A stretch of DNA of 64,000 nt from contig JAKSVZ010000002.1 in assembly GCA_024407725.1 (NCBI GenBank), positions 7,403-71,402 of the forward strand, in the 5' to 3' direction. Of the stretch, positions 4,450 to 53,289 are shown piece after piece. Numbering within the stretch: the stretch's first letter is position 1; every line of letters starts with the position of its first letter. Source of the DNA: Opitutales bacterium. Lineage in GTDB: Bacteria; Verrucomicrobiota; Verrucomicrobiia; Opitutales; UBA9783. The notes below the pieces were generated by a model. That model had not been told where the DNA came from. It searched no databases and saw only the letters and a list, made by a program, of their open reading frames with translations. Position numbers and translations under genes: made by a program.

Positions 4450-5472
4450 CGCGGTTTTGATGATTTCCCAATAACGGCGCACTCTCCACGAATAATGGGG
4501 CTGGAAGAACGTACAATCTCCGCCTTCATAATTTACCAAACCGGTTGACATACAATCTTTGCAAAAATCAACCTTTTGATGCCATAATGGTAGATTTTCT
4601 TTCGTAACATCAAAAACGCTTCCAATGGGTTCTTGAATATTACAACAGGCTATAATTTCTCCCTTTGCGTTCATAGCCAATTGATGATCAAACCAATAAC
4701 AGGTTTTAGATGGTTTAAAGCATTTTGCATTTAATCCCATCAAAAGATCTTCAACGAGGCATTTTAAATATTCTTGTGGTAAAGTATTTTTAATATATTG
4801 CATCCAGATTTTAAAATCTAATGGAATTGCGTAATAAGGGATAAGCATAACGTTCAACGATTTTGCAAATTCGTAGGCCGCTGGAATTTCATGAATATTG
4901 AACTGATACACATGAAAACGAATCATAATTCGTCCGATACATCCTCGTTGTCTCAACGTGCGGACCAATGTACGAATATTGTTTTTGATGTGTTCGAAAT
5001 CAAAACGATGAATCCGATCGTAGGATGCCTGGCTAAAACCACACATGGAAATGAACATAGACATAATTGGGCTTGCATCAAAGGTGCTGGGCAACGATGG
5101 CAAAACATTCGCATTAGTGCTTAAATCCAACAAACATTGCTCTTCGTTTGCGATTTCAACAATTTTTGCAAACTCCGGGTGCAGTAGCGGTTCATACCAA
5201 ATATATAAAATTAATTCACTACCAACCGTTAAAAAACCTTTTGCCTTTAAATCCTTAATAATCCTTCGGAAAAGCTCTACATCCATGAATCGATTACCTT
5301 CGCAGACAACAGGCGCATGGTTACGGTTCGCCATTCCCGTTGGGCAAAAATAACATTGAGCGTTACATACCTGACTAATATCCATCAACACCTGATTCTT
5401 TGCTGAATCGGGTAGTTTGCGGTACGCATTAATGCGTTTAATCGTCGATAGGGTTTTTAGGATCTGGGGCAT
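4441..5472 (-). CDS. Radical SAM enzyme with a C-terminal Cys-rich (SPASM/twitch-like) domain, paralog A
   Basis: 343 aa with an ATG start. Has the CX3CX2C motif CNAQCYFC, then YEPLLHPEF. The C-terminal cysteines read ...GEIIACCNIQEPIG...FCKDCMSTG...C. Its 3' end overlaps the topB 3' end by 9 nt (convergent). Confidence 0.8.
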   Translation of the reverse strand: MPQILKTLSTIKRINAYRKLPDSAKNQVLMDISQVCNAQCYFCPTGMANRNHAPVVCEGNRFMDVELFRRIIKDLKAKGFLTVGSELILYIWYEPLLHPEFAKIVEIANEEQCLLDLSTNANVLPSLPSTFDASPIMSMFISMCGFSQASYDRIHRFDFEHIKNNIRTLVRTLRQRGCIGRIMIRFHVYQFNIHEIPAAYEFAKSLNVMLIPYYAIPLDFKIWMQYIKNTLPQEYLKCLVEDLLMGLNAKCFKPSKTCYWFDHQLAMNAKGEIIACCNIQEPIGSVFDVTKENLPLWHQKVDFCKDCMSTGLVNYEGGDCTFFQPHYSWRVRRYWEIIKTALS

Positions 5473-9463: not shown

Positions 9464-9567
9464 GCTTCTAAAAAAGCAAAACACAAAAAAATTTCGCTTT
9501 TTTAGCGACAGTAAGCCTAAGGGTTATATACTGTTTTTGTCCTTCTAATTTAGCATGAAATGAATTT

Positions 9568-9599
9568 AAAAGTAAGGATGCTTGGGATCCTTTACTTTT
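9568..9599. terminator. Candidate bidirectional intrinsic terminator downstream of the membrane protein gene
   Basis: aaaagtaaggat / gcttggg / atcctttactttt forms a 12-bp stem with one bulged T and a 7-nt loop. A-run and T-run arms flank it. It lies about 100 nt after the stop at 9463. Confidence 0.45.
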
Positions 9600-9602
9600 G
9601 AG

Positions 9603-9631
9603 TTGACATTAAGATGAAAAACAGATTAAAT
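9603..9631 (+). promoter_or_regulatory. Sigma70-like promoter with no ORF downstream
   Basis: TTGACA (9603-9608), an exact 17-nt spacer, then TTAAAT (9626-9631). Confidence 0.4.
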
Positions 9632-10143
9632 TTATCTTAATTTGTATACCATATGCAGTGGACAAAATTATTTTATCCCAACAAGATTTTTTGTCAAGCT
9701 CTTTATAAGAGGGGGATGCTTTGGGGGGACTTTCCCTATTTGTTTTTTATCTGCTAAACGGATCCATTGTACATCACCGAGAAAACACTGATGAAATACT
9801 CTTTGTGCCTCTGTTTTTTATCGACATGGATTAACAATTACCGTATGATACGGTATTGCCTTTTCTGATTCTGCTTTTCCAAGAAAAAGTTTATTTCAAA
9901 AAAACCATCCTGTCGAGCCTTTTTAAGATAAATCCTAAAAGGATCCTATGGGTTGATTGGGATTTTCCGTCTTTATAAATGAAGGTTAAAACAAGCAAAC
10001 TTACTGTTTTCGCTTGATAGCCCTGTAAAAAAGCAACCGCTCCCAAAGAGGGCATGGGGCATTATAGGTTTATCGTTTAAAAAACCAATTTTTTTAGAAA
10101 AGGCTCATAGTAAAAAGAGAACCTATGAACTTTCGCTTTTTTA

Positions 10144-10172
10144 TTGACATAGGCACATAGGTTGAATAAAAT
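10144..10172 (+). promoter_or_regulatory. Sigma70-like promoter with no ORF downstream
   Basis: TTGACA (10144-10149), an exact 17-nt spacer, then TAAAAT (10167-10172). Confidence 0.5.
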
Positions 10173-10228
10173 TACCTATGTAAGGAAGCAATCCTCCAAT
10201 TAATGGAATTTTTGTCCCTCAAGCATTC

Positions 10229-10270
10229 ATAGGCTTACAGCAGGTGATAATTGGTAAATTTATCATGTTC
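10229..10270 (+). repeat. Non-coding element related to the 21868-21948 and 22251-22332 elements (copy U3)
   Basis: ataggcttac (10229-10238) and gtgataat (10244-10251) are exact matches to 22287-22296 and 22297-22304. A related atcatgttc / atcatctcc tail follows. Confidence 0.45.
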
Positions 10271-10363
10271 TTCTTGGTCTTTTTTAGGAGATTCTCATAA
10301 AGATTTTAACCAATCCTTATCGAACAGTCAAGGACAAAAGCGGAGCAAGAACCCTAACGAACA

Positions 10364-10402
10364 TTAAAAAATATCGCCTAGAGGGAAACCTTTAGGCGAT
10401 AT
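10364..10402 (-). terminator. Rho-independent terminator of ald (possibly bidirectional)
   Basis: atatcgcctagagg-GAAA-cctttaggcgatat forms a 14-bp stem (one G-U pair) with a GAAA tetraloop. On the minus strand it is followed by TTTTTT. It lies 24 nt downstream of the ald stop at 10426. Confidence 0.7.
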
Positions 10403-10425
10403 TCATAGGTTTTAATAGCTTATGC

Positions 10426-20175: not shown

Positions 20176-21093
20176 ATGAATGCATCTCATTTTTTGTTGG
20201 TTGACGGTACCAATTTGGCGTTTCGCAGCTTCTATGGGATACAATACCTATCCAACAGCCAACAGCTGCCGGTGAATGCCATTTACGGCTTTTTCAATTC
20301 ACTTCTGACTTTAGCCCAAACGCATTCGTTTGAACGCGCGATTATTTGCTTTGATTGCGGTCATTCAAGTGCCAGAACAGAAATCTTGGATGCCTATAAG
20401 AAAAACCGCACCCCAACACCGGATGATTTCAAAAAACAACTGCCTTACATTAAGGAACTTATTCCGTTGTTTGGATGGGTGTGTTGTGAGCAAATGGGGA
20501 TTGAAGCTGATGATTTAATCGCAACCTGGGCTCAATGGGCCACCCAAAATCAACAATCGGTAGCCATTGTCAGCGCGGATAAAGATCTCATGCAGTGCGT
20601 TACGAATACGGTGCATCAAATCGTTCCAAATTCCAACGGTTGGTATTCCTTAGATCCTGCGGGAGTGGTAGAAAAGGTAGGCGTTTATCCCCATCAAATC
20701 GTTGATTATTTAGCGCTTATTGGGGATTCTGCCGATAATTACCCAGGATTGCTGGGAGTGGGGCCTAAAACAGCTGCAAAATGGCTCAACGCTTATCAAT
20801 CAATCGAGGGTATTTACACTCATTTATCCGCCATAAAACCCGAACGTTTTCAGTCGGTTTTATCCCAATCAAAAACCTTAATCGAACGAAATCAATCCTT
20901 GGCGCGCCTTTCCTGTTCCCTTGATTGGATTGACCCTAAATTCAACCCTCAACCTCAGCCTCAAGCGTTAGATGCTAAGTTAACGGAGCTTAATTTGAAC
21001 AAATTAAGGGGTAAATGCCGTCAGTTTTTCCAACAGCATCCATCGATAATCCCTGATTCTAAGCCCTTGCAACAAGGGGAGTTTGCCTTTTGA
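20176..21093 (+). CDS. Stand-alone 5'-3' exonuclease / flap endonuclease (Pol I N-terminal domain family)
   Basis: Has LLVDGTNLAFRSFYG, IVSADKDLMQ and GDSADNYPGLLGVGPKTAAKWL (H3TH). At 305 aa there is no polymerase domain. Confidence 0.85.
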   Translation: MNASHFLLVDGTNLAFRSFYGIQYLSNSQQLPVNAIYGFFNSLLTLAQTHSFERAIICFDCGHSSARTEILDAYKKNRTPTPDDFKKQLPYIKELIPLFGWVCCEQMGIEADDLIATWAQWATQNQQSVAIVSADKDLMQCVTNTVHQIVPNSNGWYSLDPAGVVEKVGVYPHQIVDYLALIGDSADNYPGLLGVGPKTAAKWLNAYQSIEGIYTHLSAIKPERFQSVLSQSKTLIERNQSLARLSCSLDWIDPKFNPQPQPQALDAKLTELNLNKLRGKCRQFFQQHPSIIPDSKPLQQGEFAF

Positions 21094-21106
21094 GCACCCG
21101 AAAACT

Positions 21107-21763
21107 ATGAACTCCACAGACTTGCCCAATCCCAATACCGTCTTTCCTATTAAAAACCTAACTACGTTAACCTATGTAAAGCCGACCCTTAAAAATCCGA
21201 ATATTAGCGTTGGGGATTTTACTTACTTCGGAGCTAGCGATTTCGAAAGCCATGTGACCCACCATTATGATTTCATCGGGGATAAGCTGATCATTGGTAA
21301 ATTTTGCCAAATTGCCAAGGGGGTCAATTTCGTGATGAACGGCGCCAACCATCAAATGAATACCGTTTCTACCTATCCTTTTTACATTTTTGCCGGCTGG
21401 GGTCAAAAAGCGCCTGATAAGGCCGATATGCCCCTCAAAGGCGACACAGTGGTCGGTAACGATGTTTGGATTGGACAGGACGCAACCATTTTACCTGGAG
21501 TTCATATTGGGGATGGCGCTATTATTGGTTTAAACAGTGTCGTAGGGTCTCATGTTCCTCCTTATACTATTGTGGCGGGAAATCCTGCAAAACCTATCAG
21601 AAAACGCTTTGACGACGAATTAATTGCGCTCATGCTGCGCTTGAAATGGTGGGACAAAAGCATTGAGGAAATTCGTCGACTAATCCCCACGCTAACCAAT
21701 TGCCATTTGGATGAAGTAAAAGCTGCTATCAAACAGCTACTAGCCTCCGATTGCTCAAGATAA
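21107..21763 (+). CDS. Vat-family xenobiotic (streptogramin A-type) O-acetyltransferase, hexapeptide-repeat
   Basis: Similar to Vat/SatA proteins along its length by eye: HHYDFIGDKLIIGKFCQIAKGVNFVMNGANHQMNTVSTYPF...GDTVVGNDVWIGQDATILPGVHIGDGAIIG...AGNPAKPIRKRF...LKWWD. The ATG is at 21107. Confidence 0.8.
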   Translation: MNSTDLPNPNTVFPIKNLTTLTYVKPTLKNPNISVGDFTYFGASDFESHVTHHYDFIGDKLIIGKFCQIAKGVNFVMNGANHQMNTVSTYPFYIFAGWGQKAPDKADMPLKGDTVVGNDVWIGQDATILPGVHIGDGAIIGLNSVVGSHVPPYTIVAGNPAKPIRKRFDDELIALMLRLKWWDKSIEEIRRLIPTLTNCHLDEVKAAIKQLLASDCSR

Positions 21764-21768
21764 AAGCC

Positions 21769-21797
21769 TTGACACTCTAACCGTTTAGAGTTACCAT
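21769..21797 (+). promoter_or_regulatory. Sigma70-like promoter with no ORF downstream (overlaps a weak hairpin that could instead terminate the acetyltransferase gene)
   Basis: TTGACA (21769-21774), a 17-nt spacer, then TACCAT (21792-21797). The spacer contains ctctaa-ccgt-ttagag. Confidence 0.35.
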
Positions 21798-21867
21798 TAT
21801 TTTTGATGGGTGAAACTGGTTGCGGGAAGACATTTTTGATCGGCCATATGGCTGTCCTTCAAGAAAC

Positions 21868-21948
21868 TCGGCTGTTTTTTAGGAACCAGATGGCGTCACT
21901 TGATAGCTTCACGTAATAATAGACTATCAACACTTACGATCATCTCGT
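21868..21948 (+). repeat. Non-coding element, copy U1 (paralog of 22251-22332)
   Basis: Hand alignment shows tcggctgtt identical in both copies. The core ggcgtcacttgatagcttcacgtaataatagactatcaacacttacgatcatctc matches U2 at about 43 of 58 positions. Stops occur in all frames. Confidence 0.55.
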
Positions 21949-22186
21949 GCACCCAAATAGTAAATGAAGGACGTTAAATAAAATATAGTTCCATCATTCA
22001 TAGGTTGGCATGTTCTTTCAAGAAATATTGTACAACCTATCCCCTCCTAGAGTCAAGCCAAAAGCCAAAACTATATAATTTAAATACTAAACACTGCTTG
22101 TTAAAATGTCTTTAAAGAAATGAAAAAAGCAGCAATAAACAGCACAAAATTCCCCGAATCTGTACTGCTTTGATTCGATAAAAATC

Positions 22187-22215
22187 TTGACACAACAAAA
22201 CTTTATTCCTATGAT
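22187..22215 (+). promoter_or_regulatory. Sigma70-like promoter with no ORF downstream
   Basis: TTGACA (22187-22192), an exact 17-nt spacer, then TATGAT (22210-22215). Confidence 0.5.
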
Positions 22216-22250
22216 TTAAGTAGGATGTAGTAAAAGTTTTTTATTACTCA

Positions 22251-22332
22251 TCGGCTGTTCTTCAATAGACTAGAGGGCGTTACCTGATAGGCTTACGTGA
22301 TAATAAGCTGCTAACACTCACAATCATCTCCT
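22251..22332 (+). repeat. Non-coding element, copy U2 (paralog of 21868-21948; shares a core with 10229-10270)
   Basis: See U1. It lies about 35 nt downstream of the predicted TSS of the 22187 promoter. Confidence 0.55.
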
Positions 22333-22497
22333 CTGGCGCTCTGCAACTAAAAGCAGGATCACTAGAAGCAAGAAACGTTAGTGTTGATTCATCCATTTCG
22401 CTTCTACCAAACAGAATTTAACTCATTATTGCCTGAGCGTCAATAAAAAAGATAAGGATGTTCCTTTCCTTTTTTATCTCTTAAAATGCTTTTATCC

Positions 22498-22526
22498 TTG
22501 ACCCTTGGCCAAATAAAGAATATAAT
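22498..22526 (+). promoter_or_regulatory. Sigma70-like promoter pointing at the 3' end of pnp (convergent)
   Basis: TTGACC (22498-22503), an exact 17-nt spacer, then TATAAT (22521-22526). No ORF follows. Confidence 0.5.
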
Positions 22527-22758
22527 TGTTCTTAAGCGAACAAATGGCTCCAATATTCAAAATCTTTTGCACGCAAACCAAATTTTTTGATTTATCGCAT
22601 CTGCCAGCTACCATAGCAAAACATTAAAATACACGCTACAACTTAACGTTTTGACGTTAACTTTAACTTGAGCATTTTCTGGCGAAGCATGCTTGCTTAT
22701 TTTAAGCGCTTTCGCCATCGAATGTCAATTACAACGTAAAGGCTTTTGCCAATCCTTA

Positions 22759-24897
22759 TTATTTACTTGGCTGTTGTTGCATAGCTGCCTTACGGCTTAA
22801 GCGGACACGACCTTTTTCATCAATCCCAACACAGGTAACTACCATCGTATCACCAAGAGCGCATACATCGCTTGGATGATTGACTCGGCAATCAGATAAT
22901 TCGGATACATGCACCAATCCTTCCTGTCCGGGCAAGCATTCCACGAACACACCAAAATCCTTAATGGATTTAACGATGGCTTGGTAGGTTTTCCCAACTT
23001 CGATTTTTTGATCGAGCGCTTGGATTTGCTCAACTACCTTCTTGAGCATTTCCTCATCGCAGGCATAGATTGAAACTTTTCCAGAATTATCTTCGCAGAT
23101 ATCGATTTGGCAGCCGGTTGATTCCGTTAAACGTTTAATGTTCTTACCGCCAGGACCGATTAAAGCACCGATCTTGTCTGGAGAAATCATAACGGTTGCA
23201 ATGCGTGGAGCAAAGGGGCTGGTAGACGTACGCGGTTGCGCCAAGGCGCCTTTCATAACTTCCAAAATACGCGCTCTTGCTTGAGTATTTTGATGAATCG
23301 CTTCCTCCATGATTTCTAGAGGCAATCCAGCAATCTTCAAATCCAATTGAAATCCGGTAATTCCCTTGTCGGTTCCACAGATCTTAAAATCCATATCGCC
23401 GTAATGGTCTTCATCACCGATGATATCCGTTAACAGCTTATAACGCGCGATAGAGCCCGTTTGATCCATTTCGGTTACCAACCCAATGGATATACCCGAT
23501 ACAGGGGCTAAAATGGGCACTCCTGCGTCCATCAACGCTAAGGTACCACCGCAAACGGATGCCATGGAGGTTGAACCGTTTGAGCTCATGATATCCGAAA
23601 CCACACGAATGGCATAAGGGAAATCAGTTTCCGATGGAATAACGGGCAACAACGAACGTTCTGCTAAGGCACCATGTCCTACTTCACGGCGGCTAAGGAA
23701 TCCAAAGCGTCCTGTTTCTCCTGTTGAATAAGGCGGGAAGTTGTAATGAAGGATAAACGATTTCGATTGTGCTCCTCCGGTTAATCCATCCAAATCCTGA
23801 GCATCGCTATTAGCGCCCAAGGTTACGCTCACCAAGGCTTGGGTTTGACCCCGTTCGAACACAGCAGACCCATGCACGCGCTTCGGCAAAACATCAACCG
23901 CACAGGATAATTTACGGATTTCATCCAACGAACGGCCATCTAAGCGCTGATCTTGGTCTAAAACTGCCTTACGGCACACGTCCTCTTGCAAAGCTTCAAA
24001 AGCAATCGATACGGCTTCTTTTGCCTTTTCTTCATCGTCGAACCATTGCTCATCAATCGCCATTTTGAACGCGGACTGTTTGAGCAAGCGTACCCCTTCA
24101 TCAGCCGCTGAACGATCGGCATTGAACCAAGTGTTGCGCAAGGGTTCCGTAAAACTGGCTCTGCACCATTCCATGGCTTCTGTTGTAGCTACATGAGGAA
24201 CGTACGCACTTTTTACACGTCCTACTTGGCGCGCCAACGCTTCTTGGGCGTCTAAAATTGGCTGAATGGCCTGTTGAGCCTTATGTAAAGCCTCAATAAA
24301 ACGTGCTTCCGGCAATTGATCCGCGCATCCTTCAATCATCAAGGCACGGTCTCGGGTACCCACATAGATTAAATCCAAATCCGAATCGAATTGCTGATTG
24401 TTGGTTGGGTTAATAACAAACTCGCCATTGACCTGAGCAATCCGCACGCAACCAATGGGTCCGCCCCAAGGGATATCAGAACACATCAACGCCGCAGAAG
24501 CTCCATTGACCATCAAAATATCCGATTCATTCTTCAAATCGGTCGATAAGAGCAAACCAATAATTTGCACTTCATTTAAAAAGTCACTTGGAAATAAAGG
24601 ACGTAGCGGACGATCGCACAAACGCGAGGTTAAAATTTCTTTTTCGGTTGGCTTTCCTTCGCGCTTTATATAGCCGCCTGGGAAACGACCGGCAGCAGAA
24701 AATTTTTCGCGATAATCAACGGTTAAAGGGAAGAAATCCTGATCTGGAGCCACTTCCTTGGCCATGGTAGCGCTTACAAACACTACCGTATCTCCCGATT
24801 GTACCATCACCGAACCGTTGGCTCGTTGCGCTAACGTTCCGGTCGAAAACGACAATGGCATCCCCTCAACCTCAACGGTATATTTTTGCTTCAGCAT
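22759..24897 (-). CDS. pnp: Polynucleotide phosphorylase
   Basis: 712 aa with two RNase PH-like halves (SSNGSTSMASVCGGTLALMDAGVP). C-terminal KH (GPGGKNIKRL) and S1 (GVFVECLPGQEGLVHVSEL) domains are present. Confidence 0.95.
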   Translation of the reverse strand: MLKQKYTVEVEGMPLSFSTGTLAQRANGSVMVQSGDTVVFVSATMAKEVAPDQDFFPLTVDYREKFSAAGRFPGGYIKREGKPTEKEILTSRLCDRPLRPLFPSDFLNEVQIIGLLLSTDLKNESDILMVNGASAALMCSDIPWGGPIGCVRIAQVNGEFVINPTNNQQFDSDLDLIYVGTRDRALMIEGCADQLPEARFIEALHKAQQAIQPILDAQEALARQVGRVKSAYVPHVATTEAMEWCRASFTEPLRNTWFNADRSAADEGVRLLKQSAFKMAIDEQWFDDEEKAKEAVSIAFEALQEDVCRKAVLDQDQRLDGRSLDEIRKLSCAVDVLPKRVHGSAVFERGQTQALVSVTLGANSDAQDLDGLTGGAQSKSFILHYNFPPYSTGETGRFGFLSRREVGHGALAERSLLPVIPSETDFPYAIRVVSDIMSSNGSTSMASVCGGTLALMDAGVPILAPVSGISIGLVTEMDQTGSIARYKLLTDIIGDEDHYGDMDFKICGTDKGITGFQLDLKIAGLPLEIMEEAIHQNTQARARILEVMKGALAQPRTSTSPFAPRIATVMISPDKIGALIGPGGKNIKRLTESTGCQIDICEDNSGKVSIYACDEEMLKKVVEQIQALDQKIEVGKTYQAIVKSIKDFGVFVECLPGQEGLVHVSELSDCRVNHPSDVCALGDTMVVTCVGIDEKGRVRLSRKAAMQQQPSK

Positions 24898-48892: not shown

Positions 48893-50718
48893 ACCGCTAC
48901 CATTAGCACTTGTATATCCGATGGATTAACCCCACTGATACGGGAGGCTTGCCCTAAGGTTAACGGTCGTACTGCCATTAACTTTTGGCGGCTTTCATTT
49001 CTTAAACTCAATACGGTCGTATAATCAAACTCAGCTGGGATTTTAATCGAATCCAGCAACTGCGTACGTTCAATCACCTTCTGTTCGCGCTCCAAATACC
49101 CTTGATAGCAAACCCGATACAAAACTTCTTCGCGTACAGCATCCGGTAGGGTCAAAAATGCAGCAGGTAAGTCAACGGTAGGCTTTGGTTCTTGATTCTG
49201 AGAACGGCGCAATGCGTCACCAAAAGAAATTCCTGCTTCGCAGGGTGTTTGTTCTAGGGTACGTACCCAATCCTCAACCGTTTGCTTTTTGTGCTTAATG
49301 GCCTGAATCCGTTCAGGGCTTAGGCAATGATAACGCGCCGCCTGATCAATCAAACGCAATTCGGCGCTCGCATGATTCAACAACAAACGGTATTCGGCGC
49401 GTCCCGTAAACATACGGTAAGGCTCCTTGGTGCCTTTTGTGGTTAAATCATCAATGAGAACCCCTATATAACTAGCGTCGCGGGATAACACACAGGGTTC
49501 TTCGCCTAAAACAGCCGCGCTTGCATTGATACCGGCGATCACTCCTTGACCCGCTGCTTCTTCATACCCCGAAGTACCGTTGATTTGACCTGCCATGAAT
49601 AACCCACGTACACGTTTGCTTTCTAGGCTTGCGTTTAAATCCGTCGGGTCGGAAAACACATATTCGACAGCATAAGCCGGACGCACCATCACCGCATGCT
49701 CTAACCCCGGAATCGTTTGCAACATCGCCTGTTGGACGTCGAACGGCAAACTGGTGGAAAGCCCATTGATATACCATTCGTCCGTACTCAATCCTTCCGG
49801 CTCTAAAAACAACCGATGCCGTTCCCGATCGGCAAACCGAACGCATTTGTCCTCGATGCTGGGGCAATAACGCGGGCCTGTTCCCTGAATATTGCCTGAA
49901 AATAAGGCAGAACGTTTCAAATTATCCAAAATAATCTTATGCGTATCCTTATTAGTATAGGTCATCCAACACGAACGCCTGTGGGTGTCGGGATCCCAAG
50001 CCATGGGTATCGGCAACACCCCATGGGAGCTTCGGGTATCATAAAACGCAAATAAACACGGATGTTCGTCGCTCTTTTGTTCTTCGCAACGTGAAAAGTC
50101 GATAGTGCGTCCTAAAATCCGTGCAGGCGTACCGGTTTTTAACAGCCCTACCGGAAAGCCTAATTGCGCTAAATTATCCGCCAACGCATAACTGGCTGAG
50201 TCTCCCATACGCCCTCCGGGGAAATGGGTATGGCCTACGTGCAAGGTGCCTTTTAAAAAGGTACCTGTGGTTAAAATGACCGTTTTAGCCTCTAGGGTAC
50301 CCGCTAAACGCGTTTGTACGCCAGTTATACGTCCTTCTTGAACGCATAAACTTAGCACTTCGTCTTGCAACAGCCGAATGTTTGGTACTTGTTCCAACCG
50401 GCGTTTCATGCTGAATTGATAGGCTTTTTTATCACATTGAGCCCGTGGAGCTTGAACCGCCATCCCTTTGGAACGATTCAATATCCGAAACTGAATAGCC
50501 GTTTCGTCCGCATTTACCGCCATCAGCCCCCCTAAGGCATCGATTTCACGCACAATGTGCCCCTTGGCTAGGCCGCCAATAGAAGGATTGCAGCTCATTT
50601 GGGCAATGGTATCCAATTGGTGAGTAATCAGGAGCACTGACACCCCCCGTTTAGCTGCTATCCAAGCTGCTTCGCAACCTGCATGACCACCGCCACATAC
50701 AATCACATCGATACTCAT
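48865..50718 (-). CDS. mnmG: tRNA uridine 5-carboxymethylaminomethyl modification enzyme MnmG (GidA)
   Basis: 617 aa. FAD site [15 protein letters not shown]. GidA-like throughout. Confidence 0.95.
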
Positions 50719-50736
50719 AGCTCCCTTATACCCTCT

Positions 50737-52098
50737 TTATTTACCGATGCAAAACTTAGAAAAGATTACATCGAGGATTTGTTCATAATCCACACGCCCT
50801 ACCACCGCTTCTAAAGCGCGCAGTGCTGATTTTAAATCCGCCGCAAGGCAATCATCATAAGCATGCGTTTGCAACAACGATTGAGCGTGCGTTAACCACT
50901 GCTGAGCTTGTCGAAACGCTTCCGCATGACGTTCGTTCACCATAAACGCTACTTGGGTCGGATCCGCATAATGGGTTTGTAAAAAGTGACGCAACTCGCT
51001 TTGCACCTTAGGCAATTGATCACCATCGGTTAAGCTCAGGGAACAAATAGTATATCCTTCCAAAAGCGCTTTGATGGCAGGATTAACCCCCAAATCCGCT
51101 TTGTTCAACAGTACCAATGTCCGCTCTTGGGGAAATTTCGGCTGAAGTTCCTTCAAGCCATCAAGGGTCGATTGAGAACCATCCACCACCCAAACAATCA
51201 TATCCGCCGTTTGTAATTGTGCGTAGGTTTGTTCAATCCCCATGCGCTCCAACATATCCTCTGAGGTTCGTAACCCTGCCGTATCGATCAAGGTTAAAAG
51301 GTAAGGGTCTAAAGCATAGCGCTCCGTCACATAATCGCGGGTGGTTCCAGGAATCGCACTGACCAACACCCGTTGGCGCCCTAATAAGCCGTTTAACAGC
51401 GTACTTTTGCCTGCATTCGGCTGACCCGCAATTACCACTTGAATGCCTTTGTGCAACGGAGCATACGCCGCATGAGCTTGAATTAACTGCTGCAGTTCTT
51501 TCCCCAATTCCTGTAGGTGCGTATCCAATTCCTGCCGATCTTGTTCCGGCAAATCCTCTTCGGGGAAATCCAAATACGCTTCCACTTTGGCAATTTGCTC
51601 GCTCAATAGGTCAACAAACTGCGTAACTTTTTGGCTGAGCGCGCCCCCTAACTGTTTTTGAGCTAACTGCAGCGCTTGTAATGATTGTGCATGAATCACC
51701 TCTTCCACCGCTTCTGCTTGGCATAAATCCAAAACTCCATTGGTAAAAGCTCGGCGGGTAAATTCCCCTGGCTCCGCTTGCCGACAACCGCGTTGGATAC
51801 AATCGCGCACAATCTGTTGAATAATGATTGGGTTTCCATGGCAGGAAAGCTCCAACATCGCTTCACCCGTATAGGAAGCATGTTCCGCAAAGAGCACAAA
51901 AACCACTTCATCTAAAGCAGTTTCTGGATGATCAAGCAAACGATAATGTCCATAGTAGGCTTGGCGTGGAACCAACGACGTACGTTTAAAGATTGCCTGC
52001 GCTAAGCTTAAGCATAAAGGCCCACTGAGCCGAATAACCCCAATTCCGGATACCCCCCATGGAGTTGATAGAGCCACAATGGTATCGCTTGTTTCCAT
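50737..52098 (-). CDS. mnmE: tRNA modification GTPase MnmE (TrmE)
   Basis: 453 aa. G1 motif GQPNAGKSTLLN, also DTAGLR, and a C-terminal CIGK. Confidence 0.95.
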   Translation of the reverse strand: METSDTIVALSTPWGVSGIGVIRLSGPLCLSLAQAIFKRTSLVPRQAYYGHYRLLDHPETALDEVVFVLFAEHASYTGEAMLELSCHGNPIIIQQIVRDCIQRGCRQAEPGEFTRRAFTNGVLDLCQAEAVEEVIHAQSLQALQLAQKQLGGALSQKVTQFVDLLSEQIAKVEAYLDFPEEDLPEQDRQELDTHLQELGKELQQLIQAHAAYAPLHKGIQVVIAGQPNAGKSTLLNGLLGRQRVLVSAIPGTTRDYVTERYALDPYLLTLIDTAGLRTSEDMLERMGIEQTYAQLQTADMIVWVVDGSQSTLDGLKELQPKFPQERTLVLLNKADLGVNPAIKALLEGYTICSLSLTDGDQLPKVQSELRHFLQTHYADPTQVAFMVNERHAEAFRQAQQWLTHAQSLLQTHAYDDCLAADLKSALRALEAVVGRVDYEQILDVIFSKFCIGK

Positions 52099-52377
52099 AA
52101 CCTCTTAAGCCTTTTCCAGAGCGAGTTTCCTTGGTTTGTTAATAACCCAGTGAATAAATAAGGATAAAAAGGTCAACAAAGGTAAATTGCTCATTTTTGT
52201 TCACCAAAAACCCCTTTCATTCTCAACTTATTCACACTGTAGTATTCAAGTCTACAAGCGGTTTTGTGTCAATTTTTAGCACTTATTCGCCTGTATAATA
52301 AGAATAATAAATAAAACAATTTATTTTCATATAATAAAGCTTTGCAATATCATTCCCAAAATCACTAGATTATACAA

Positions 52378-53289
52378 ATGAATGATGCATTAACGAACGC
52401 TACAGAAAACTATTGGCATGCGTTGTTGCAAGCCTGTGGGGAAGATAGTAGCCGCGAGGGATTGGTAAAAACCCCGCAACGTTTTTTAAATGCCTTTGAG
52501 GAATTAACTTCGGGTTATCATCATACCTTGGAGGAAGTGGTTAATGATGCTTTGTTTCCCTGTACCAACTCCAATCCTATTTACATACAAGATATTCCAT
52601 TTTTTTCGCTGTGTGAGCATCACGTATTGCCTTTTTATGGTACCTGCGCGGTAGCTTACATCCCGAATGGTACGGTTTTAGGGTTATCTAAGGTTTACCG
52701 CATTATTGCCTTATATGCTCAACGCTTACAGCTGCAGGAACAATTAACGCAACAGATTGGTGAGGCTATTCAATCCGTTACGCATGCTAAAGGTGTACAG
52801 GTGGATATGCACGGAACCCATTTGTGTGTAGCGATGCGGGGGGTTAAGCAATCGCAATCGTTCATGCATACCCATTATCAGAACGGAGAAGCCATTCCGC
52901 CTTCCACTCAACAGGCTGCATCCGAACCTACCTGTTCCCTTTATTGTACCTCTCAATGGATTCCGTTATTCATTGGGTGCACCGAAGGAGAACAAAAGCA
53001 GCCGACTCCCATTCAGCTAAGCCTGCAATTACGTATGCCGGTGGATTATGGTACCCGCAAAGACGATTTAAGCACCACGGTGGATTATGATGCCTTGATG
53101 ACGGGGATTAAGCAGGAATGTTTGAACCAACGCTTTCAGTTGATTGAATTTGCGGGTCAAACCATCTATCAATGGGTTCATGAGTATTTAGCGCGCCATT
53201 ATCAAGATATGCCGATAAAAATTACGTTACAGAAGCGTTTGTCGCACGAATGGTTACAGGATAGTCAATTTGCTATAGGAGATTTTTAA
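52378..53289 (+). CDS. folE: Fusion protein: GTP cyclohydrolase I (FolE) N-terminal domain plus a dihydroneopterin aldolase/epimerase-like (FolB/FolX) C-terminal domain
   Basis: The N-terminal part reads GLVKTPQRF...[30 protein letters not shown]...HLCVAMRGV. The C-terminal ~115 aa read [20 protein letters not shown]...[12 protein letters not shown]...[11 protein letters not shown]...ITLQK, which matches the FolB pattern. Confidence 0.8.

Follow-up and report, generated by a model that had tools for sequence, protein, structure and literature searches.

The 64,000-nucleotide (nt) stretch of DNA analysed here, referred to as the window, belongs to a metagenome-assembled genome (MAG) of an uncultured Opitutales bacterium from the horse gut. 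At positions 21764-22758 it contains a spacer flanked by two convergent genes, one encoding an O-acetyltransferase and the other, pnp, encoding PNPase (Table 1). An earlier note on this DNA had pointed to two similar elements of about 80 nt in the spacer, U1 and U2, lying behind consensus-like promoters, and proposed that they could be small RNAs (sRNAs), cis-regulatory RNAs or relics of a small mobile repeat. In most close relatives, the corresponding spacer holds a single cassette, which consists of a plus-strand promoter-like site (P), an interior with a U-like element and a minus-strand promoter-like site (Pm) facing P. We found that U1 and U2 stem from a tandem duplication within this cassette, that the spacer varies between strains, that U is constrained neither in sequence nor in structure, and that the key positions of Pm are constrained, those of P less clearly so. 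The reading favoured here, with a probability of about 60%, is that of a strain-variable non-coding spacer with probable overlapping sense and antisense transcripts, in which U1 and U2 are a duplicated, weakly constrained interior.

As the earlier note had stated, the spacer contains no open reading frame (ORF) of 60 amino acids or more, the longest one having 40. The flanking genes carry consecutive NCBI accessions (MCQ2955688 and MCQ2955689), therefore no coding sequence is annotated between them. The G+C content of the spacer is 36%, compared to 44% for the window.

Table 1. Features in and around the spacer (positions in the window) and parts of the single cassette of related strains.
Feature	Position	Strand	Description
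5'-3' exonuclease gene	20176-21093		
Acetyltransferase gene	21083-21763	+	Hexapeptide-repeat CatB/Vat-type O-acetyltransferase; converges on the spacer with pnp
Unit 1 left end	21711-21737	+	3' tail of the acetyltransferase gene; aligns with 22120-22143
Terminator-like hairpin and T-run	21738-21721	-	Within the acetyltransferase gene tail
P1	21769-21797	+	TTGACA-17-TACCAT; its spacer contains the 7-bp hairpin ACTCTAA/TTAGAGT
U1	21848-21948		Internal 19-nt tandem duplication and 62-nt core (21885-21946); nhmmer E=1.5e-18
Pm1	22027-22056	-	TTGACT-18-TACAAT; convergent with P1
Unit 2 left end	22120-22176	+	Decayed copy of the acetyltransferase tail; weak hairpin, then the repeat GATAAAAGCCTTGACAC / GATAAAAATCTTGACAC
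Weak hairpin of unit 2 left end	within 22120-22176		-8.4 kcal/mol (plus strand), -13.6 kcal/mol (minus strand)
P2	22187-22215	+	TTGACA-17-TATGAT, 11/12; duplicate of P1
U2	22251-22332		Core 22269-22330; the copy nearest to the single U of relatives; nhmmer E=2e-22
Pm2	22415-22443	-	TTGACG-17-TAAATT; ortholog of the promoter adjacent to the pnp terminator in every related strain
AT-rich inverted repeat	22443-22477		A-run and T-run flanks; 16-nt arms, 88%; -11.8 and -14.1 kcal/mol
P3	22498-22526	+	TTGACC-17-TATAAT, 11/12
Palindrome TGTTCTTAAGCGAACA	22527-22542		Perfect, 16 bp; begins one base after the P3 -10 hexamer
Pm3	22699-22728	-	TTGACA-18-TAAAAT, 11/12; 31 nt downstream of the pnp stop; convergent with P3
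pnp	22759-24897	-	Converges on the spacer
Related strains, P	directly after upstream gene	+	TTGACA-17-TnnnnT
Related strains, interior	200-300 nt		U-like element inside
Related strains, Pm	after pnp terminator	-	TTGAC[A/G]-17-TAnAnT; convergent with P
Related strains, terminator	adjoins pnp stop		GC-rich hairpin between A- and T-runs, bidirectional

Convergent promoter-like sites and the related strains

Three plus-strand promoters had been proposed for the spacer, each with 17 nt between its hexamers, and all three promoter-like sites are present (P1 to P3), including the last one, which faces the 3' end of pnp as described. Three minus-strand sites that the earlier note did not contain (Pm1 to Pm3) converge on them, which gives the spacer three convergent pairs; the distances between the -35 hexamers of each pair are 287, 256 and 230 nt. 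All five sites in the 64-kb window that score at least 11/12 are located in two ORF-free regions, this spacer and 9464-10425, while the gene-proximal upstream regions of the window reach 6-10 of 12.

Nine close strains (L082, L086, L087/88, L089-91, L093, L094/95 and L096/97) with PNPases 96-97% identical were recovered by homology search, cluster listing and exact-protein look-ups. A scan of genome contigs based on pnp returned only distant Verrucomicrobiota (at most 61% identity) with no similar spacer. The spacer of the related strains is 274-421 nt long and holds the single cassette in all except L096 and L097, in which a truncated acetyltransferase pseudogene (residues 7-100, E=1e-47) is fused to Pm and both P and U are gone. 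Identity to the window at four-fold degenerate sites is 0.80 for L082 and L089 (pnp) as well as L086 (acetyltransferase gene), and 0.71 for L087.

The promoter-like sites could be inactive or spurious matches in an AT-rich spacer, with the whole region being functionless and simply expanding and contracting. Its low G+C content fits this explanation, as do the duplications, deletions and tandem repeats that turn over fast among strains and the identities of the blocks near the promoters, which are close to the neutral level. However, composition-matched simulation predicted 0.49 sites of at least 10/12 and 0.03 of at least 11/12, whereas 5 and 3 were observed, and none of 2000 simulations reached the observed count at either threshold (P<0.0005). 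Moreover, in six distinct Pm sequences, variation is confined to the non-critical positions: 0 of the 9 critical ones (the -35 TTGAC and T1, A2, A4 and T6 of the -10) vary, compared to 11 of the other 20 (P=0.005). The spacing of 17 nt within Pm is the same in all related strains, and Pm is retained in L096 even though P and U have been deleted. A functionless region is therefore considered unlikely, and Pm is probably a real promoter, judging from its pattern of conservation.

For P, seven distinct homologous copies share an invariant -35 TTGACA followed by a variable -10, with 2 of 9 key positions varying against 14 of 20 others (P=0.023). In the window, P2 comes within one base of the consensus, and P is probably active there. 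In L093, the -10 region of P is replaced by a run of eight C just after TTGACA (GCCCTTTACTATT in L086 corresponding to GCCCCCCCCTATT in L093), which could be either a real promoter-killing change or a homopolymer assembly error.

Tandem duplication of the left part of the cassette

The similarity between U1 and U2 stands up to a formal alignment. Their cores match over 62 nt without a gap at 76% identity, blastn aligns 80 nt at 75% (E about 7e-11 in the window), and the identical string read by eye in both elements (TCGGCTGTT) is indeed common to them. U1 has undergone an internal tandem duplication of 19 nt (21849-21868 and 21869-21887), therefore the 5' end of U2 can be aligned with it in two registers.

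Matches between the two units are collinear and include the acetyltransferase gene tail (21711-21737 with 22120-22143), the promoter block (21759 with 22177) and U (21868-21946 with 22251-22330), at offsets of 409, 418 and 384 nt, respectively. The tail match extends over 27 columns with a score of 13, which was reached by 10 of 1000 shuffles, and the duplicated part takes in about 27 nt of the acetyltransferase gene. The arrangement is a segmental duplication in tandem that took in at least 250 nt at the left of the cassette and was later modified by substitutions and indels. The single cassette of L086 aligns with unit 2 of the window from U2 through Pm2 (22256-22450, 201 columns, 64%), and its P block is most similar to P1, the copy directly adjoining the acetyltransferase gene. 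For the last 280 nt of the spacer (22478-22758), carrying P3 and Pm3, no homolog was detected in the other strains.

The likeness of U1 and U2 is that of a collinear local tandem duplication, and not that of dispersed sRNAs or of a mobile element. A third, shorter copy of the core had been proposed at 10229-10270. It is not supported, as a U profile run with nhmmer matched nothing in the window besides these two elements. The hand-made match consists of a 10-mer and an 8-mer across a 5-nt gap, with p of about 0.04 on a preselected target of 118 nt alone. Among 99 Verrucomicrobiota loci (1.06 Mb), the profile found no copy beyond the syntenic spacer of close relatives. Two scans of metagenome contigs with U patterns gave no matches and were uninformative, as they also missed a Joint Genome Institute (JGI) contig of L082 that matches the second pattern exactly. 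Within the window and these loci, U does not have the features of a miniature inverted-repeat transposable element or another dispersed repeat either: the window contains two adjacent copies, and the repeat list contains no terminal inverted repeats and no target-site duplications around U1 or U2.

Divergence and folding of U

The identity between U2 and the U of L086 is 0.71, compared to 0.80 at four-fold sites of the acetyltransferase gene for the same pair. Between U2 and L087 it is 0.56 (four-fold sites of pnp and the exonuclease gene, 0.71-0.73), and between L086 and L087 it is 0.52, against a four-fold identity of 0.69 for L087 and L089, the latter standing in for L086, whose contig lacks a full pnp. 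U diverges faster than synonymous sites in these comparisons, which show it to be without sequence constraint. It is also altered by larger changes. The U of L086 contains a 13-nt internal tandem duplication, and that of L082 an 18-nt duplication together with an array of AT-rich repeats, about five tandem copies of 17 nt (TTAATTTTATTAATTAA; around 4750-4840 in the coordinates of that locus) taking the place of the 3' half. The 3' half has been replaced in L089 and L094 as well, and the palindromic block of U is deleted in L093.

The earlier note had itself doubted a structured RNA, and this doubt was justified. No consensus fold was obtained by RNAalifold from four diverged homologs (-0.7 kcal/mol on the plus and -3.0 kcal/mol on the minus strand), and folding z-scores were ordinary, both for the elements (-0.31, +0.08, -0.75 and +0.34) and for the predicted transcripts (-0.78 and -0.87). 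When the window was compared to Rfam 15, no family passed its gathering threshold in the spacer, the only hits in the whole window being two tRNAs; a permissive scan of 21600-22900 produced sub-threshold chance matches only, none of them on U1 or U2.

These results bear on the possibility that the two U elements are functional paralogs, either sRNAs or cis-regulatory RNAs, each with its own promoter and acting through a conserved structure or seed. It would agree with the near-consensus promoter that precedes each U, with a 62-nt core that is better conserved than the remaining unit and with the occurrence of a U-like element in most relatives. However, a conserved RNA family is not what the comparison of strains reveals, as U diverges beyond four-fold sites, is half replaced or deleted in several strains and has neither a consensus structure on either strand, nor a stability signal, nor an Rfam match. 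We therefore regard functional RNAs of this kind as improbable.

Palindromes, small reading frames and decayed genes

The palindrome at the predicted start of P3 has the form TGTTC-N6-GAACA and is one of three hits to this pattern with at most 1 mismatch in the 64 kb. The best-conserved (5') block of U contains TGTTC-N6-GAAC with mismatches. Both could be operators of a dimeric DNA-binding protein which controls or blocks the convergent promoters. The perfect 16-bp symmetry of the palindrome and the presence of the pattern, with 1-3 mismatches, in the U block of most strains (repeated in U1 and L082) are in keeping with this. On the other hand, at up to 3 mismatches the pattern is no commoner here (5 per kb) than elsewhere in the window (4.2 per kb), L093 has lost it and no regulator was identified, which makes operators very unlikely. 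A LexA (SOS) operator was rejected for these palindromes due to their N6 spacer. The LexA operator of Verrucomicrobia is reportedly TGTTC-N4-GAACA, a pattern with a single 1-mismatch hit in the window, outside the spacer.

Each unit could also be a tandemly duplicated module resembling type I toxin-antitoxin (TA) systems, in which the mRNA of a toxic peptide is opposed by a convergent antisense RNA. Convergent near-consensus promoter pairs 230-290 nt apart and a tandemly duplicated unit would suit such a module, and small ORFs with hydrophobic and charged residues are found in unit 1 (MNDGTIFYLTSFIYYLGARDDRKC) and unit 2. However, the small ORFs of six homologous cassettes have no common frame, start or stop, and none is kept between U1, U2 and the relatives. 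Interior indels among strains measure 1, 13, 14 and 19 nt, not multiples of three, and the U1/U2 mismatches fall on the three codon positions 6, 5 and 4 times by hand count, showing no three-base periodicity. A TA-like module is accordingly very unlikely.

Two reading frames were considered individually. A small minus-strand ORF through U (MDEST...EEMIVSVSSLLSRKPIR in unit 2) was initially promising, as U1 and U2 have coincident stops in this frame and their differences include four synonymous ones and an indel of 3 nt that keeps the frame. The comparison of units and strains led to its rejection: the frame is interrupted by a stop in unit 1 and displaced by 1 nt in L086, and both frame and end are different in L087, L089 and L082. 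The similar peptides of a plus-strand frame (TRxRxLI...TLTIIS) fail across strains in the same way. The statement that all frames of U1 and U2 contain stops holds apart from one U1 frame, which is open across the element.

Among the ten longest stop-free frames tested against Pfam, the one at 21773-21913 (+) encodes a peptide (LFLMGETGCGKTFLIGHMAV) resembling a Walker A P-loop, with a match to AAA_5 on this peptide only (E=0.001, 19.5 bits, below the cutoff of 22). The frame is missing from unit 2 and all relatives, and the resemblance is probably due to chance. The earlier note had named a decayed gene as the finding that would overturn its proposal. In the window this alternative is negative, with nothing above threshold in Pfam and no match to the spacer by tblastn with the acetyltransferase, exonuclease and pnp proteins. 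The least credible explanation makes the spacer what remains of a decayed gene, or U what remains of a small non-autonomous mobile element: it has the Walker-A-like peptide and the true acetyltransferase pseudogene of L096/L097 on its side, and against it the absence of that frame elsewhere, the empty tblastn searches, the lack of similarity to plasmids or phages, the restriction of the U profile to this locus and a repeat list devoid of terminal inverted repeats and target-site duplications.

Host genome and surroundings of the spacer

The exact PNPase of the window is also recorded in the NCBI assembly GCA_024500545.1. A Logan contig of run SRR17543914 (4978 nt) matches the window at 100% identity and carries the exact PNPase; the run comes from a metagenome study of the equine gut (PMC9529974). 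In the 90% protein cluster of the PNPase, the names given by NCBI are 'Opitutales bacterium' or 'Opitutae bacterium'.

For the acetyltransferase gene, the longest ORF (226 amino acids, with a TTG start) shares 11 nt (21083-21093) with the end of the exonuclease gene. As the NCBI product has 218 amino acids and homologs mostly 211, the true start is probably located downstream. The last 15 or so residues form a lineage-specific C-terminal extension. The gene is strain-variable, being intact in most strains, reduced to its last 20 or so codons in L087/L088 and present as the truncated pseudogene in L096/L097. Its nearest intact homologs outside the clade (77-80%) are in MAGs of Clostridia and Elusimicrobia, which suggests horizontal acquisition followed by decay. 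A second acetyltransferase (P0122, 213 amino acids, 80% identical) is recorded in GCA_024500545.1 outside the window, and a protein identical to it is found in a 'Clostridia bacterium' MAG (L098); P0122 may be either a paralog or a binning contaminant.

Three further interpretations of the locus were rejected. The spacer is not a cassette travelling with the acetyltransferase gene, as the 80% paralog in another MAG has a convergent gene 17 nt downstream, and in L087 and L088 all of P, U and Pm are retained although the acetyltransferase gene is no longer intact. The convergence of the genes had raised the possibility of a replication terminus with a dif site, but the GC skew keeps its sign near 22 kb. 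Finally, the catB-type gene could have been followed by an integron attC site, but reading of the sequence showed no pair of R'' and R' cores spaced as in attC.

The other ORF-free region, 9464-10425, is also located between convergent genes, for a Na+/H+ antiporter and alanine dehydrogenase. It contains five promoter-like sites of at least 10/12 and seven terminator-like hairpins, compared to 1.1 expected. Promoters and terminators can be paired from +9603 to about 9748 (about 110 nt), from +10144 to about 10413 (about 235 nt) and from -9697 to about 9485 (about 180 nt), which suggests short transcripts, and the region looks more like an sRNA gene cluster than 21764-22758 does. Further along the window, the GC skew turns from negative to positive near 52 kb (about 50000-53000), where the cumulative skew has its minimum. 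The switch is within a gap of 279 nt that separates mnmE (minus strand, 50737-52098) from a gene for GTP cyclohydrolase I/FolB, and this position may be close to the replication origin.

Discussion

In the reading we favour, a strain-variable spacer with overlapping transcripts and a weakly constrained interior, Pm, which lies just past the pnp terminator, would drive minus-strand transcription through the spacer. Its RNA would be antisense to U and P and head towards the 3' end of the acetyltransferase gene. P would transcribe the plus strand towards pnp. The resulting sense and antisense RNAs would each be around 250-300 nt long and fully complementary, and their levels would be set by transcriptional interference or by duplex formation and degradation. 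In the genome of the window, the cassette has been duplicated in tandem over its left part, from the acetyltransferase tail through P to U, giving P1/U1 and P2/U2, which have since diverged. A further 280 nt or so were gained next to pnp with the third convergent pair, P3/Pm3, which would bring the number of modules to three. U1 and U2 would then be the transcribed interior of the first two modules and not functional structured RNAs.

Several observations weigh against this reading. The window contains no strong intrinsic terminator that bounds the predicted transcripts, only AT-rich hairpins of -5 to -14 kcal/mol, therefore the transcript ends are uncertain. The hairpin at 22443-22477, for example, is a weak bidirectional terminator-like structure at the place of the GC-rich pnp terminator of the relatives. 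The -10 of P is poorly conserved, it is destroyed in L093, and in L096 P is lost altogether; P is therefore dispensable. The homology of Pm1 and Pm2, in the right halves of units 1 and 2, has no statistical support, which leaves the extent of the duplication beyond U uncertain. The divergence of U1 and U2 (about 25-29%) is somewhat above what would be expected if the duplication were younger than the split from the single-cassette strains (four-fold identity 0.80). Finally, promoter activity is deduced from consensus and conservation only.

The arrangement can be compared to known systems. In E. coli, SdsR (RyeB) and RyeA (SraC) are a fully overlapping cis-antisense pair of sRNAs, and SdsR is conserved across enterobacteria. 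As with this pair, the spacer is predicted to give rise to two non-coding RNAs whose intergenic promoters face each other and which would be complementary for most of their length, and no conserved ORF is present. Unlike SdsR, its interior is not conserved even between close strains and its transcripts are predicted from sequence. It also differs from the SdsR/RyeA locus in having no clear intrinsic terminators, and shares no sequence homology with it. Type I TA loci with convergent overlapping transcripts and tandem copies include bsrG/SR4 and txpA/RatA of Bacillus subtilis and ldr/rdl and ibs/sib of E. coli. The spacer resembles them in its convergent near-consensus promoters a few hundred nt apart, its ORF-poor sequence and its tandem unit, but it has no conserved small hydrophobic toxin ORF and no Rfam match at threshold.

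The third comparison is with the ordinary turnover by tandem duplication and indels that takes place between convergent genes. Here, the duplication is collinear and includes the 3' part of a neighbouring gene, divergence is at or above the neutral rate, and the spacers range from 274 to 995 nt, with deletions and AT-rich tandem repeats. What distinguishes the spacer from ordinary turnover is its unusual density of near-consensus promoters, at least one of which (Pm) looks constrained. The features of the spacer are real and non-random, but U1 and U2 are the product of ordinary local duplication in a fast-turnover spacer and do not make up a conserved or dispersed RNA family.

More tentatively, the locus could be a lineage-specific, protein-free module of sense and antisense RNAs, in which two convergent constitutive promoters produce fully overlapping transcripts that titrate or interfere with each other, while rapid turnover of the interior is tolerated and tandem multiplication has resulted in three modules. 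We give this reading a low probability. If true, the module might serve as a buffer against read-through between pnp and the acetyltransferase resistance gene, or act on the latter by silencing its 3' end.

The locus also carries a caution, as similar 80-nt elements behind consensus promoters can stem from the local duplication of a weakly constrained spacer, which is told apart from a conserved RNA family by comparing close strains. To our knowledge, there are no characterised sRNAs in gut Opitutales. If the promoters are active, the transcripts of this spacer would be among the first candidate antisense RNA pairs described in this group, and the locus would illustrate how such modules are duplicated and decay between strains.

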